Positions 2,540 through 63,700 of a stretch of 64,000 bases of DNA are shown here, in pieces. Location: assembly GCF_006345805.1 (NCBI RefSeq), contig NC_042998.1:67580001-67644000 (forward strand). Direction: 5' to 3'. This stretch comes from Octopus sinensis (lineage: Eukaryota). The translations under genes were made by a program, and so were the position numbers. How positions within the stretch are numbered: position 1 is the first letter of the stretch; every line of letters begins with the position of its first letter. The notes under the pieces were generated by a model. It made no database searches. It saw only the letters and a list, made by a program, of their open reading frames with translations, and was not told the DNA's origin.

Positions 2540-3053
2540 ATATTTAAATATCGATACTATCAAGTGGCCAGCATAGGAATAAATACCATACAAAGGTAAT
2601 AATTTTTTACAACTATAAATACGAGTGTCTGAGAGACACCACCATGCCGAAATAGCAGTCAAATCCCTGACTCTAAAAACCACTTTACATGTCCATATCG
2701 CACCATGAGATAAGACAGAGGGACAGAATAGAGTAGCAAAAAGATATTACTGAATAATTCAAGATCCTGGATTTCTAGATTTGCTTCAAATAAGCTCTGC
2801 CTTCATCAGTTGAATATATCAGATGGGAACATAAGTACAAATATATATATACAGAACACATGTTTATACTTACATATACGAAGGTTCATACATACATATA
2901 TATGCACGTATGTACAAGGCCAGTTTAAATCGCCTGCCAACCACCTCATAGGCGCGATATGGTCAAAATAAACACCGCAGTAAATATAGTGACGAACTAT
3001 ATAAATTTATAAATAAGGATAATATCGATATTTAAATATCGATACTATCAAGT
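2540..3053 (-). mobile_element. Short hammerhead-containing element (retrozyme or Penelope pLTR-like) bounded by 26-bp direct repeats
   Basis: atatttaaatatcgatactatcaagt occurs at 2540-2565 and 3028-3053. There is an internal HHR motif and the element is flanked by (TA)n. Confidence 0.6.
2757..2815 (-). ncRNA. Type I hammerhead ribozyme motif
   Basis: Minus strand reads AUUCAA CUGAUGA [AGGCAGAGCUU-AUUUG-AAGCAAAUCUA] GAAA UCC-A-GGA UC UUGAAU. Helix I is 6 bp, helix III is palindromic (AUCC/GGAU), helix II is imperfect. Confidence 0.7.
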
Positions 3054-4114
3054 ATATATATATATATATTCTGTATGTATCATTTTAGAGAGTTTGTATG
3101 AGAATAAATCTTTTATGTCAATATAACTCTTAAAAGAAAGAGAAAATAGTTTCTGTATATTTTAAACTCCTATTAAATATATTGTTCTTGTTTACTTCAA
3201 TGATTTGTTTTCAGACATTCATTTACGTAACGAGATTAATAATTCTTTCTTCACCTCTCTTTTTATACTTGTAGCTGCCAATGGGAACACTGAATAAGCG
3301 GTTTTTTTAGCTGGAAATAAAAGCCAACTTGCGATGAATGATGTACATTAGTGTTCAGTGACCGGAGATGCGGAAACGAGCAACATATCACGTGATTCCA
3401 AAGTTACATCTGACATCCGATTCATCTTGATGGTGTAGTCCCTCATCTAGAATATACATCAATGTCTGGGTTGAAATGGTGTCAAGCATACTCGATGGAT
3501 ATTTTAAACTGTTCTGGTATATGTTTCGTTTTTCCGCCGAGAATATGAAATTATTTCAGCTTATTTTAGTTTTCCACAATTAATATTTTCGTTTATAGAA
3601 AATTTCCCACTTTCTGTTTATTTATTCCAACACCACTTATTTGAAAGCAAATCCCCAAACCAGTTATTGATCATTGGTCAGTAGAGTTGTCATATGTCGT
3701 GCCAGAGCATATGATACGCAGTAAAAATGAATATATGCTGGAAAATACAAATGATACAATGAGATAGAAAGTGCCTGTTTCATACTGAAAGGTATTGTCT
3801 CTATCTATATTGGTATTTCTTCATCTATTCGTTCTTCTCTGTCTGAAAAATATAAATATTTATATTTGTGTATGCTGGCACCTATGACGGTAGGTGTGTG
3901 AGTATGTGTCGATATACAGATATGTATCCTCTGGCTTCGTAAAGAAAATTCAGAATGCTGTTGTGATATATTTTATTCTAGTTTCAAACATTATATATAT
4001 ATATATATATATATATATATAATTCATTTGATCTTATTCTAAAATCATATTGTCATCAAAAAAGGGTTTGGCCGAGTTGTGAAATAAAAGAAAATACTTA
4101 TATAAACTCACAAC

Positions 4115-4534
4115 ATGGCCCATATTAATACTTGTATCTTACTGCTGTTTATTGCATTGAATTTATCAGCTATTGAAAGTCTCAACCAAGGAACACCACC
4201 GACAGTTAGTATGGCTGTATTAGTACCTGAGAGCCCTTTTAAGAAATCTCAACTCATTGGATATATTATACGCTCAATCAATCAATATCGACGCAAACAA
4301 CTGCCATTTAAACCAACCGGTTACCTACAGTCTATTAAATCTGGGAGTACTAAAGAAATACTGGATGCTTTTTGCAATGATTTCTTTCGGAACAATACCA
4401 TAGCCATAATGTATATTAACAACCAAGTCATATTACAAGGGGACCCCTCTGCGGGGAGTTATGTAACTCAGTTGGCGCACGCAGTTGGAATACCCGTCAT
4501 TTCCTGGAATCCCGATCGTACCATGGCCATTCAG
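4115..4534 (+). CDS. Nmdar2: First coding exon of an NMDA-type ionotropic glutamate receptor subunit 2 (GluN2/Nmdar2-like): signal peptide plus start of the amino-terminal domain
   Basis: ATG at 4115 and hydrophobic signal peptide (MAHINTCILLLFIALNLSAIES). Motifs 'ILDAFCNDFFRNNTIAIMYINN' and 'SYVTQLAHAVGIPVISWNPD' closely resemble the invertebrate NMDAR2 ATD (ILxxLCxEFL..VSAILY; YFLQLAGYLGIPVISWNAD, recalled). Strong phase-0 donor CAG|GTAAGT at 4534/4535 after 140 codons. Confidence 0.88.
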
Positions 4535-60520: not shown

Positions 60521-60637
60521 GTGTGCACACACATGCTCACACACACACACACTCATATATAAATATATATATATATATTATATATATATATATATATATA
60601 TATATCGATTAAGTAATAAGGATGTCTAGGTATTAAG

Positions 60638-60724
60638 TGCATTACGCCCGTTTCAGACGGCTCCATTTAATCGATCAGTGCAACCATTACATCAGTTTGA
60701 TATACATCGCCTTCTTCAGTTGCA
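60638..60724 (-). ncRNA. Type I hammerhead motif within a ~270-bp element between (TA)n tracts (60606-60880)
   Basis: Minus strand reads UGCAA CUGAAGA AGGCG...CGUCU GAAA CGGGCG UA AUGCA. Core intact, helix II 5 bp, helix I has a closing mismatch. Confidence 0.72.
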
Positions 60725-63700
60725 TAAGACCATATAGCTTTTCAACATACACTAATACCTGGACATCCTTGTTAATTATTTGGTTTATATTCAACGTCGA
60801 ACTGTGGCGGAGAATACCGAACTGACGACTTAGTGCCTCAACTTCAGTACCTAACTGTAGTGAATTTTAATTATTTCTATTATATATATACATATATATA
60901 TATATATATATATATATATATATATATATATATATATATATATATATATATATGTATGTGTGTGTGTGTGAGAGAGAGAGGAGAGAGAGTGAGAGAAGAA
61001 ACAGATAGAGGGATACATATGTGGTCATAGACATATAGATAAACAGATGTATGTATGTGTGAGTGTGTGTGTGTGTCTGTATTTGTGCATGCGTATTCGT
61101 GCATGTGTATTTGTGTATGCCTTCACGCCTTGAGCGCACATCGCGCCAGTTTTAAAGAGACACACCGTCATAGAATCGATGTTGTATGATTGTAATGTTG
61201 TTAGAAACATTGTCCTGGCTAGATGTAATATATGACCATGATTATAGATAGGTGAACGTTGATGACCGAAAGACCATCAACCACAGATAATTTGCATGAA
61301 CAAAATTCCTCGACCCCTTCAAAGAGGAAAACATAGACGTTAAAACAATAACGATGATGATTAGGAAGATCAGTAAGAGGAGAGGTGTAGGGAAGGACGT
61401 GGAAATGAGATCAGTATGGTTACGTTCGTAATTTATCAAATAAAAAAAAAGCAGAAACGTGAGCAAAATTAAAGGTCTATCAAGTCAACAAAGGGACTTT
61501 GTAGGTTATTTCATATAAATCATATCCGATCATCTTATAAAAGAGAACGATGATTTGAATTATATAGTCTCGGTTATTTCTAAACAGACTGGATCGGAAT
61601 TCCTTTGATTGTATGTGTGCAAGATCTGTTTTGACCTGAGAATAAGTAAAAGCGATATCATAACGAAATTAGTATTGCAAGCCAGTATGAAACTCTAATT
61701 TTACAGCAGTTCTTTGATATATCATTTTGAAGAATTTTATTGAAGTTATTTCAATATCTAAGTGGTGCATGTCTTTAAACGTGAAGAGCCAGAGTTATGG
61801 AGACATTAGCTAGAAGAGGCATAGGAATGCCGTCTCGCCTCAGTCATTCTTAATTTTCGCTTAGTTACATACTTAACAAGCATTATATATAGACTATCTC
61901 TCGCTCTAAAATCTTTTGAGAGTAACTATACGAGATGAATACGATAACTTTCATTCGAAATAACTGTTTCAAGTAGCTCCTTTCTTTTTTTTTTTACTCA
62001 AATAAGCAATTTTATTGTATTACATTCAATTTCTTTTTACCATTTTCCTTTATCTTTCTCCCCAAAAGTATCCATTTATCCGGTGTGTATGAATCAATAC
62101 GCCCTTAATAAATCAATTGAATCTTTTTCTTTCATCTGACTGTGAATCAGGCTTTCGATTTCGAATTCCTATAAGTAAACAGAACTGACACAACAAAGCA
62201 GTTCACAAAATGGCCGTCTTTTCTCCATTATTCTAACAACCATTTCAGCGTGACCATACCAATTTGTTCTCTTTGATGTCCGGCTTTTCTTCTGGCTGTT
62301 TAATTTCTCTATATATTGATAAATCTTTCGCAGGCTCTTGACCTATAAATTTAAGAAGCTGACAAAGGTCAAACAATCACATTAACTCGCTCATTTCTTT
62401 TATATAATATACCTTCTCTCAGATGAAGTTTCCTTGCTCTCTCTCTCTCTCTCTCTTACCATAATCTCTGTTTTCCTCTTCATCTATATATCAATTATTT
62501 CTTTTTCAAGTGGTTTTGGACGTGGCAGACGAATGCAACATCAGTAGCAGTTCATTTACATTATGTAATTCGTTACATTAGTGATCCGAGTTCAAATTCT
62601 GCAGAGTTCAATTCCGTTTCTCAGGTTACTTGGAGTCGATATTGTCAGAGCTAATAATATTGCTAGGGTTTATTTAATTATGACACGAAGTAAATATTAA
62701 TATTATATTAAGTCAAAAACATTCAGTAACAATTTTCTTTCAATTGTTCCTTCCGTCTTTCTTCCATTTCTTCCTCCCTCCCTTTCTTTCTTTCTATCTT
62801 TCCTATCATACATTTCCGTGTAATATTTTCTTTCTATATTCTACACATCAGTCTACACATATTTAGTTCCCTTACCCAACGATAATTTCTTAACGGTCGC
62901 AAACAAATTTACGCAAAAATATGCAAGAGCCTCCCTTACATGCGAGACTACCTATACATATTTATATGTGCACAACTTCTATCAGTATATATATATGTAT
63001 ATATATATATAGAGAGAGAGAGACAGACAGAGAGACACAGAGAGAGAGAGACAGAGACAGAGAGAGGGAGAGACATATATAATGACATAGATAGATAGAT
63101 ATGTGCATACATATAAATGTATATATATGTGTGTATGAACATCTATATATACATACATATATACATATATATACAAACAGACACATACACACACACATAT
63201 ATATATATACATATCTATCTATCTATCTATATATATAATATATATATATATATATATATATATATATATATATATATATATAATATATATATATATATTT
63301 ATATGTATATATGTATATGCACATATATATGTATACCCAGGCATAAAAACATGAAAATTTGCAGCAGCTACGCAAGTATTACTCCCACATGCAGGTAACT
63401 TCTCATACACTCCGACAAAAATCGTCACGCATTTGCTTATATGCACTGCATAGTTTTGTGCTCCTACTGATAAGTACCAAGTATAAACATTATGTCGCAC
63501 ACAAATATATATCTTATTCTCTTATATTCGAACATACACACCTTGACATGTAGAACAAGACATGAGCACGTGCTTATCGACAAATGCGAATGAAAAATTC
63601 ATAACAATCCTATCCTCAAAATATTACATGCATGCAGTTGCTGTTGTCATTCTGATTCTCCAGAGCGTCGGCTGCGGGGTCACTCCGAAAAGCTTTATCT

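Follow-up and report, generated by a model that had tools for sequence, protein, structure and literature searches.

Type I hammerhead motifs in and around an octopus NMDA receptor gene as probable terminal-repeat remnants of Penelope-like elements, one family of which carries a tRNA-Gln-derived leader

Why should one stretch of octopus DNA, in and around a single NMDA receptor gene, carry a dozen hammerhead ribozyme motifs? The window analyzed here comprises 64,000 nucleotides of the Octopus sinensis genome, and an initial annotation reported 12 type I motifs within it, each given by its low coordinate. All 12 are present where that annotation placed them, with core C3 positions at 2809, 18610, 25039, 40449, 53135, 53939, 57290, 58695 and 60719 on the minus strand and at 48394, 54016 and 57524 on the plus strand. 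A thirteenth, absent from that annotation, lies at 30097(−) (30031..30102); its core is intact and its helix I has 5 bp, the helix II base is damaged, and it has no relative among the family loci compared. Core letters are kept in 11 of the 13 motifs, the broken cores being those at 48394 (GAGA replaces GAAA) and 57290 (GAAT). At 57524 the core letters are present, and after a 3-nt loss helix I is unable to form. The helix III palindrome is damaged in four window copies; the motifs at 40449, 53135, 58695 and 60719 have palindrome or helix damage relative to their own families.

A strict type I descriptor recovered five of the 12 motifs (18610, 25039, 40449, 53939 and 54016); shuffled windows gave a mean of 0.17 matches (300-nt block) or 0.08 (whole-window), with a maximum of 2 in 60 shuffles each. 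Two loose descriptors gave 10 and 13 window matches against 3.2–4.0 in shuffles, and the weaker motifs are therefore non-significant singly. In a profile search, each of the 12 was matched by the profile of one of nine families, each with 232–2,303 first-look genome candidates, and the weaker motifs can be taken as confirmed through this family membership. The figure of about nine families is thus correct: there are nine multi-copy families, here called A to I. An Rfam scan of the window gave no hammerhead family among the 150 matches listed (with 233 lower ones besides), and microsatellite matches dominated.

Across the genome, three exact core patterns gave 83,155 matches against 6,166 for reversed controls (20,837 against 2,154, 40,210 against 3,895, and 22,108 against 117, by pattern). 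The proposed density of one motif per 5 kb describes the window only, the net genome-wide value being one per 35 kb; the window holds 9 exact-core matches, compared with 1.96 per 64 kb on average across the genome, and evenly spaced genome samples held 14 in 600 kb. The first 60 unselected genome matches fall into 31 families, and the very large radiation of PLE-type type I hammerheads in many unrelated families that had been proposed is borne out. Pairing was assessed in these 60 matches on features outside the search pattern, against partner-swapped controls. Helix I of at least 3 bp was present in 38 (control mean 7.0, maximum 18), helix II in 41 (14.4, 25) and a full helix III palindrome in 48 (17.2, 29), and helix I pair 2 takes all four Watson–Crick pair types across the 31 families; by these counts, helices I and II pair and covary. 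A sister subfamily of A (48381..48545, plus strand; hammerhead 48390–48432, with the broken GAGA core) carries a compensatory U-A for A-U at the helix II base, and this one two-sided helix change relative to A is weak alone. An inverted upstream partner accompanied 27 of the 60 matches, a reading frame of a Penelope-like element (PLE) within 1.5 kb upstream only four, and a direct repeat nearby only three.

The motifs are, with good probability, type I hammerheads in the terminal repeats (pLTRs) of about ten PLE families, and the window copies are likely short, dead reverse-transcription products. The hammerhead population, its placement in pLTRs and the pairing of tailed with untailed arms are known biology. 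In the available portions of Cervera and De la Pena (2014, PMC4209133), the pLTR hammerheads of metazoan PLEs share with those described here the type I fold, a short helix I, an extra base after A9, a helix III that is palindromic or absent, and the presence of many families per genome, mostly as single truncated copies with some opposite-strand pairs 100–700 bp apart. The approximately 2,000–9,000 hammerheads reported there were obtained with another descriptor and are not like-for-like with the approximately 77,000 net intact cores found here. The octopus motifs differ in a helix II of up to approximately 70 nt, in a common C for U at core position 4 and, in families G, H and I, in one extra base on either side of the helix II base.

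The elements behind families B and D encode a reverse transcriptase and a GIY-YIG-type endonuclease and carry the motif in their end repeat, which tandem copies place before the next reading frame. Family D corresponds to the 3' end of a young PLE of Hydra type, a call based on motifs, homologues and feature look-alikes. The window copy (18470..18860, minus strand) is a 5'-truncated 3' UTR with an intact hammerhead (18534–18613, cut site after 18537) and a short inverted tail piece at its 5' end; another piece of the D 3' end, in inverted orientation (18305..18370, plus strand), is separated from it by (TA)n. Elsewhere in the genome, where D has 14,061 first-look candidates, an intact open frame of 908 residues upstream of the motif encodes both the reverse transcriptase and the C-terminal endonuclease, and among 30 long copies the hammerhead repeat lies directly upstream of the frame in six and inverted in eight. 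The protein has no Pfam or PDB match; it contains RW and DKT motifs, lacks CCHH, and has CxxC and CxH around a conserved E and N. According to the available portions of Craig et al. (2021, PMC8557442), the Hydra clade, including Hydra-1_Obim of Octopus bimaculoides, shares with D the C-terminal endonuclease without CCHH cysteines, the RW, DKT, CxxC and CxH motifs, (TA)n targets, and a hammerhead near the 3' end with a tail and an inverted partner. By comparison with the clade as described there, D is longer (908 residues in an approximately 3.6-kb unit), young and equipped with a different hammerhead, the likeness being one of motifs and not of a tree. The CxCX5C linker was not matched in the D copy read (L111), and D is therefore filed as Hydra-type and not as a member. 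An assignment of D to Neptune was dropped because its motifs agree better with the Hydra description. Three RNA runs of another organism label held 1, 1 and 0 reads of D, two partial reads in all.

Family H is represented by a short window copy (53010..53185, minus strand; hammerhead 53060–53137, with a helix I of 2 bp and a damaged palindrome), and endonuclease remnants lie upstream in two other copies. The partial tandem with the pLTR before the frame, the inverted 5'-truncated partner and the tail at one end reproduce the layout of endonuclease-positive PLEs. The description of this population as mainly non-autonomous mini-elements lacks support in the form given: B and D trace to coding PLEs, H has endonuclease remnants upstream, and family I alone is shown to be short and non-coding. 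Standard annotation does detect PLEs in octopuses, with 31 recently active families listed (PMC13282606), and the available part of supplement S2 of PMC8557442 already tabulates an octopus PLE with a hammerhead.

The 1.5-kb flanks of 39–62 matches per family revealed no coding parent for A, C, E, F or G; upstream coding-frame matches numbered 0 of 42 for A, one doubtful of 43 for C, one unrelated of 62 for E, 0 of 39 for F and 0 of 40 for G. Within the window, A forms a head-to-head pair of an untailed arm (53804..53976, minus strand; intact hammerhead 53902–53942) and a tailed arm (53979..54232, plus strand; tail approximately 54152–54232, intact hammerhead 54012–54054). The remaining four copies are on the minus strand: C (40320..40511; hammerhead 40361–40454, with a long helix II and one change in the palindrome), E (24905..25085; intact minimal hammerhead 25009–25043, cut site after 25013), F (60604..60752, adjoined by an inverted 3' piece at approximately 60747–60870; hammerhead 60638–60724, with the first helix I pair and the palindrome damaged) and G (58590..58725; hammerhead 58652–58699, with an intact core and damaged helix II and palindrome). 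Head-to-head pairs were compared in families A, B, C, D and G. One tailed and one untailed arm were found in 18 of 18 pairs in A, 10 of 13 in C, 8 of 10 in D and 10 of 15 in B; the rule was absent in G (six pairs, with a reference that is possibly too short). The 5' ends are also regular. All 35 arms of A, in a sample of copies best matching the window arm, have their 5' end no more than 47 nt from the core, and a pattern designed for A copies reaching further 5' matched only two; 32 of 44 E copies end at −72 to −90.

These features could arise in the following way. PLE RNA would begin inside the upstream repeat, and the PLE protein may nick both strands of AT-rich DNA and prime at two neighboring sites downstream of the hammerhead; both cDNA copies would then run toward the RNA 5' end and be joined there. 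Such two-site priming and joining would leave A, B and E with fixed 5' ends, and no separate mini-element would be needed. For an anole element, the available portions of PMC11167929 describe two internal initiation sites in vitro with both strands extended, and retention of insertion in hammerhead mutants. The hammerhead itself is likely slow, likely cuts as a dimer via the palindromic helix III, and is likely dispensable for each insertion. Family I, a short non-coding unit, likely borrows PLE protein.

Turning to family B, its sequence identifies it as the 3' end of a Poseidon-type PLE. In the window, an inverted arm (57200..57315, minus strand; hammerhead 57250–57295, the GAAT core) is followed on the plus strand by a tRNA-Gln-derived leader (57321..57393; box A 57328–57338, box B 57371–57382), the copy beginning a few bases upstream, and then by an (AAC/AAT)n linker and the start of the PLE reading frame (57395..57620), its start codon altered in this copy. 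The plus-strand hammerhead (57519–57559) lies inside the frame, downstream of the start codon, and its cut site has lost 3 nt, an in-frame loss seen in 26 of 95 copies counted. The B protein matches RVT_1 in Pfam (E 2.5e-11) and an Anolis carolinensis protein with 38% identity in the reverse transcriptase part and 29% in the endonuclease part; its DKG motif, the cysteines inside GIY-YIG and the likeness to the anole element are those of the Penelope/Poseidon clade. In the accessible sections of Frangieh et al. (2024, PMC11167929), Poseidon PAc of A. carolinensis resembles B in a clade assignment by similarity and motifs, not phylogeny, in a hammerhead overlapping the frame start and in two 3' ends inside the early frame. 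B differs from PAc as described there in its leader within the pLTR, its lack of a shared run of four T (T4) and a start codon upstream of the whole hammerhead.

The leader of B is a whole tRNA-Gln-derived sequence with A and B boxes. It can be aligned over its full length with the tRNA-Gln genes of this genome, a fit that no shuffle equalled (2,000 for each of four comparisons); the two boxes survive, and the stems have decayed. Both boxes are intact in 11 of 30 B copies and in none of 234 copies from seven other families. Exact 17-mer counts along B are 1,082 at 157 nt inside the frame, 1,204 at the stop, 5,061 at box A, and then 5,961 and 8,999, a fourfold step in copy number just 5' of box A. 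This leader belongs to the repeat of the coding element itself, and for that reason a reading of B as an independent SINE mobilized by a PLE was rejected; of the traits of tRNA-derived SINEs and TRIMp3 elements, B has the tRNA-derived head with boxes A and B and lacks the non-coding, non-autonomous unit. With relaxed settings, ARAGORN placed a tRNA-Ser on the leader of 5 among 30 copies, a result set aside because many false genes were also called.

A run of four T is a polymerase III stop signal, and the approximately 2.7-kb B unit has no shared T4. The leader would set the start of B RNA as a polymerase III promoter, a reading that we slightly favor. A fuller scenario is tentative and rather doubtful: B would be an autonomous coding PLE whose terminal repeat holds a captured tRNA-Gln promoter from which polymerase III reads the whole element, with the unit kept T4-free and the uncapped RNA translated without a cap. 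Because the hammerhead lies inside the reading frame, cutting would end the use of this RNA as message, and short run-off copies, in tens of thousands, would resemble a tRNA SINE.

Alternatively, the leader may be a passenger, in which case the 5'-end step would reflect initiation by polymerase II, cleavage during processing or a hot spot of template switching at a near-palindrome, and the lack of T-runs would be due to chance; this has a realistic prospect of being correct, if one somewhat short of even. It is consistent with the fixed 5' ends of A and E, which lack A and B boxes, with the description of known PLE promoters with introns and H3K4me3, and with the tRNA searches, as Rfam gave no tRNA match on B loci and ARAGORN at default settings found no tRNA in the window or in the family loci examined. 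The T4 argument is itself weakened because five of 65 control Poseidon-type coding regions of at least 1 kb also lack such runs (two of 44 at like T content, from one family); for one B copy, the absence has P 0.037 by dinucleotide shuffle and 0.069 by its own codon usage, and one set of copies shows a mild shortfall (5 runs against 8.2 expected). Against a passenger stand the tRNA-Gln alignment with its kept boxes, and the position of the copy step at the first base of the tRNA-like part, after the whole of it has been copied; of 12 copies retaining the 5' reading frame, two also begin there. The T4-free state also spans the UTR of B; none of 11 control UTRs is free of T4, and T4-free copies are almost lacking in families A, C, E, G, H and I.

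Polymerase III promoters in mobile elements have been described for non-coding SINEs and TRIMs. In the available portions of the sources, Cassandra, Helenus and Ajax (TRIMp3; Kojima 2024, PMC10886601) resemble B in a polymerase III promoter of a small-RNA gene inside the terminal repeat, and Schistosoma Sm-alpha (reviewed in PMC6765202) combines a promoter of this kind with a hammerhead in its tandem units. As described there, TRIMp3 and Sm-alpha are non-coding and non-autonomous, whereas B is a PLE encoding a reverse transcriptase and an endonuclease of its own.

A less probable account of the wider population, which we regard as unlikely, is that most families are self-standing, non-autonomous, retrozyme-like mini-elements whose tandem or circular RNAs are moved by PLE protein. 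Family I fits it best, being the only one of the nine shown to be a short non-coding unit with a type I hammerhead in permuted or tandem copies. It has a 484-nt period and a longest stop-free stretch of 75 codons, and in 11 of 30 copies sequence from downstream is found again upstream. The window copy (2544..3053, minus strand; hammerhead 2758–2814, cut site after 2763) lies in (TA)n upstream of the gene and comprises one whole unit with approximately 25 nt of terminal redundancy. Tandem arrays of approximately 400-nt units are present in other families, among them L404 with at least four units, and five families have no parent found. The available portion of bioRxiv 10.64898/2026.07.22.740005 derives retrozyme-like units from PLE repeats; in that portion and in the sections available of Cervera and De la Pena (2020, PMC7229834), animal non-LTR retrozymes resemble I and L404 as non-coding units of 400–484 nt with a type I hammerhead, copied into permuted monomers or short tandems. 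Unlike the retrozymes as described there, no array with two whole hammerheads was found in 30 family I copies, the best (L326) having one whole and one half. Set against this account more broadly are the descent of B, D and H from coding PLEs, the absence of a short tandem period in A, C, F, G and H, and the scarcity of direct repeats near unselected matches; the tandem arrays of E are only apparent, being separate copies within one (TA)n tract.

Very improbably, the motifs are retained because they serve the NMDA receptor gene, for example by cleaving or tuning its pre-mRNA. The gene call is correct: the first coding exon of an NMDA-type glutamate receptor gene (P0001, labelled NMDA 2B-like) lies at 4115..4543 on the plus strand and exon 2 approximately 306 kb away, so that the remaining window downstream is intron 1, which holds 12 of the 13 motifs. 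The excess of exact cores in the window (Poisson 2e-4) would favor such a role, but the window was chosen for its many motifs, pairs are non-independent, and 20 kb of flanks held one match. Nine of the 12 motifs in the intron run antisense to the gene, and the copies are decayed relative to their families. Of the three sense motifs, two are broken and the third (54012–54054) is predicted to be trapped in the host pre-mRNA within a 173-bp hairpin, in which it pairs with the other family A arm. The tie between motifs and gene looks incidental. Chance matches in AT-rich DNA, for which only the 3–4 loose-descriptor matches per shuffled window would speak, are refuted by the strict-descriptor and genome pattern counts far above controls, a further count of 14 against 0–2, and the pairing and palindrome excess in the 60 unselected matches.

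The preferred reading, that the motifs belong to PLE terminal repeats, makes this population ordinary PLE biology on an unusually large scale. It supplies dozens of natural hammerhead variants with a long helix II, useful for testing the purpose of the PLE ribozyme, and the strict rule of one tail per pair supports, at the level of the genome, the two-site priming observed in vitro. No printed account was found of the whole tRNA-Gln leader of B, the fourfold copy step just 5' of box A or the unit of approximately 2.7 kb without a shared T4; our literature searches found no polymerase III promoter in a PLE or a coding retrotransposon. If polymerase III does read B, a SINE and an autonomous life style would be united in one element, and a polymerase III RNA would be translated independently of a cap. 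Possibly, some octopus repeats filed as unclassified SINEs are the ends of PLEs.

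The hammerhead population is genuine and, for the most part, of a kind already described. All twelve type I motifs of the initial annotation are present in the window, C2:67,580,001–67,644,000, and its estimate of about nine families is borne out: genome searches returned nine (A–I; 232–2,303 first-look candidates each), whose profiles recover 12/12 motifs. A strict type I descriptor passes five of the twelve, against 0.08–0.17 in shuffled sequence; two loose descriptors discriminate less well, with 10 and 13 matches in the window yet 3–4 in shuffles, and the genome search was therefore done per motif. 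A thirteenth motif lies at 30097(-), and among the window copies three are broken and four worn. Sites at 28461–28500 (+) and 10400–10455 (-) show CUGANGA followed by a hairpin without GAAA, and are possibly decayed motifs. The host gene is indeed an NMDA receptor: frame 4106–4564 matches an Octopus sinensis protein record, "NMDA 2B-like", at 100%, exon 1 occupies 4115–4543 and, because exon 2 sits at C2:67,890,377, the window beyond ~4,543 is intron 1. Nine of 12 intronic motifs are antisense to this gene (solo motifs, 7/8; two-sided P about 0.07); sense motifs 48394 and 57524 are broken, and a predicted hairpin (-252 kcal/mol) would sequester 54016. Fragments at 21954–22647, 37166–37689, 54620–55117 and 7752–8231 resemble LINE and mariner-type frames; Pfam returned no match for the three tested.

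Across the 2.72 Gb genome, three exact core patterns gave 20,837, 40,210 and 22,108 matches, and their reversed forms 2,154, 3,895 and 117, a net of about 77,000, or one per 35 kb. The proposed density of one motif per 5 kb thus describes a rich window (nine exact-core matches against a mean of 1.96, in a window selected for exactly that) and not the genome. In evenly spaced samples totalling 600 kb, the strict descriptor found 14 motifs, against 0–2 in ten shuffles. The first 60 of 61,047 genome matches, taken as an unselected sample, represent 31 families, and outside the pattern's demands they show helix I pairing in 38/60 (7.0 with swapped partners), helix II pairing in 41/60 (14.4) and the palindrome in 48/60 (17.2). 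Among these 60, an inverted upstream partner accompanies 27, and a Penelope-like element (PLE) frame lies within 1.5 kb of four.

Strict hammerheads are frequent among aligned copies of A (32/33), C (25/38) and D (33/38), less so in B (11/42), and rare or absent in G (1/32), H (0/25) and I (0/28), which fail the descriptor because of one extra base on either side of the helix II base. The core variant CCGANGA is common in genome matches of E, F and G, and is the usual form in F.

The suggestion of a mainly non-autonomous radiation is only partly borne out. Family I does consist of a short non-coding unit, 484 nt long, present in the window once plus about 25 nt; B and D are PLE ends, and H has endonuclease remnants 0.9–1.2 kb upstream in 2/27 matches. 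Family D copies are 3' UTR sequence from a young PLE: they are 98–100% alike, the reverse transcriptase part of this PLE has 14,061 first-look candidates, and at locus L111 a frame of 908 residues is open and has an inverted, truncated partner on its 5' side. The hammerhead repeat immediately precedes the frame in 6/30 long copies. The D protein had no match in Pfam or PDB; its motifs fit the Hydra description, the linker excepted, and its feature look-alikes carry GIY-YIG and PF26215. A second Hydra-like PLE at L371:4797–6500 has a 568-residue open stretch, 34–40% identical to D. Family B makes up the end repeat of a PLE of the Poseidon type. No coding parent was found within 1.5-kb flanks of the 39–62 genome matches per family of A, C, E, F or G; inverted partners are present in A, C, F and G. 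In other families, direct tandems of ~400–445-nt units, each with a hammerhead, occur at L404, G000:C1:4621805–4622984 and C1:2173411–2173877, and are the best retrozyme candidates seen.

Head-to-head pairs combine one tailed and one untailed arm in A (18/18), C (10/13), D (8/10) and B (10/15), a pattern not seen in G pairs; the tail of B and D copies is where the following unit begins. Such pairs fit the behaviour of an anole element, which primes in vitro at two adjacent internal sites, with extension of both nicked strands, and inserts without needing its hammerhead (PMC11167929). Families A, B and E have fixed 5' ends, which would correspond to the point in the upstream repeat where an RNA starts; if priming took place just 3' of the hammerhead and copying ran off at that point, short fixed-length copies would result with no separate mini-element. 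Families A and E may instead be copied from a short master element. Summed contig depth from a DNA run, which is not copy number, is lower over D's 5' frame than at its 3' end by a factor of ~30 or more. Family E 5' ends cluster at TCATTC about 85 nt before the core (32/44 copies start at -72 to -90), a motif that resembles an initiator element. In intron RNA, the window pairs at 53804–54151 and 57200–57610 are predicted to fold as long, almost perfect hairpins. A-to-I editing occurs heavily in octopuses, and these hairpins are likely substrates for it.

Turning to family B, a leader about 31–104 nt beyond the stop codon (window copy, 57321..57393 (+)) derives from tRNA-Gln. It aligns end to end with two tRNA-Gln genes (0/2,000 shuffles score as high, in four comparisons), and a loosened pattern from it finds 69 genome places, mostly tRNA-Gln genes and B copies, against 0 in the control. 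Boxes A and B are retained while the stems have decayed; both are intact in 11/30 B copies and in 0/234 copies of seven other families. Counts of exact 17-mers are 1,082 for a site 157 nt into the frame and 1,204 for the stop, then 5,061 for box A (with two degenerate letters for CpG), 5,961 for the anticodon arm and 8,999 for a site next to the hammerhead. The fourfold step falls within 37 nt and is located past the copied-through tRNA-like structure. Among 60 arms, three extend into the frame; the others begin at most 45 nt past the stop (18), within the leader (11) or further along (28). Of 12 copies with the 5' frame, judged by eye, two start at the leader and two run on into a stop region upstream. 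The frame begins after an (AAT)n linker and passes through the hammerhead, and P0127, a relative about 50% identical, keeps the same in-frame peptide (residues 18–35; cf. L516–L527), so this overlap is old. A 3-nt loss at the cut site (window 57519–57559) drops one codon with the frame intact (26/95 copies; full form, 62/95), and may reflect slippage that happened repeatedly, or a lineage that had lost cutting and nevertheless kept moving. A 5S rRNA copy lies near a B insertion at L027:2707–2825.

A run of four T (T4) ends polymerase III transcription. One long B copy has no T4 in 2,312 nt (2.9 expected, P 0.037), whereas two other PLEs from the same genome have 15 and 13. In 12 further copies, 19,400 nt contain 10 such runs where 24.8 would be expected, and no run is common to more than two copies (4–13 copies per step). 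The UTR is T4-free in 20/22 B copies, in 0/11 controls, never in A, C, E, G or I, in 3/25 of H and, over a shorter span, in 18/29 of F. Several results weigh against a polymerase III reading: under its own codon usage the long copy lacks T4 with P 0.069, another set of B copies has 5 runs against 8.2 expected, control coding regions lack T4 in 5/65 cases (2/44 at like T content), and Rfam, run on B loci, does not recognise the leader as a tRNA. A passenger leader, with the lack of T4 due to chance, falls, in our judgement, only slightly short of an even prospect.

Much of this has precedent in the literature: PLE-repeat hammerheads, their dimer design and scattered single copies (PMC4209133); the PLE tail and inverted partner, and one tabulated octopus Hydra PLE hammerhead (PMC8557442); and retrozymes as PLE derivatives (bioRxiv 10.64898/2026.07.22.740005). 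Non-coding TRIMs are described as carrying tRNA or 5S promoters inside their terminal repeats (PMC10886601), and Sm-alpha as carrying such a promoter together with a hammerhead (review PMC6765202); the parts examined of octopus repeat papers made no mention of ribozymes. Literature searches, confined to papers and mostly to openly available ones, listed no PLE with a tRNA-derived leader. For family B the data establish the tRNA origin of the leader and the step in 17-mer counts, and we infer from them that polymerase III reads it; it is this family that is the part of the finding worth following.
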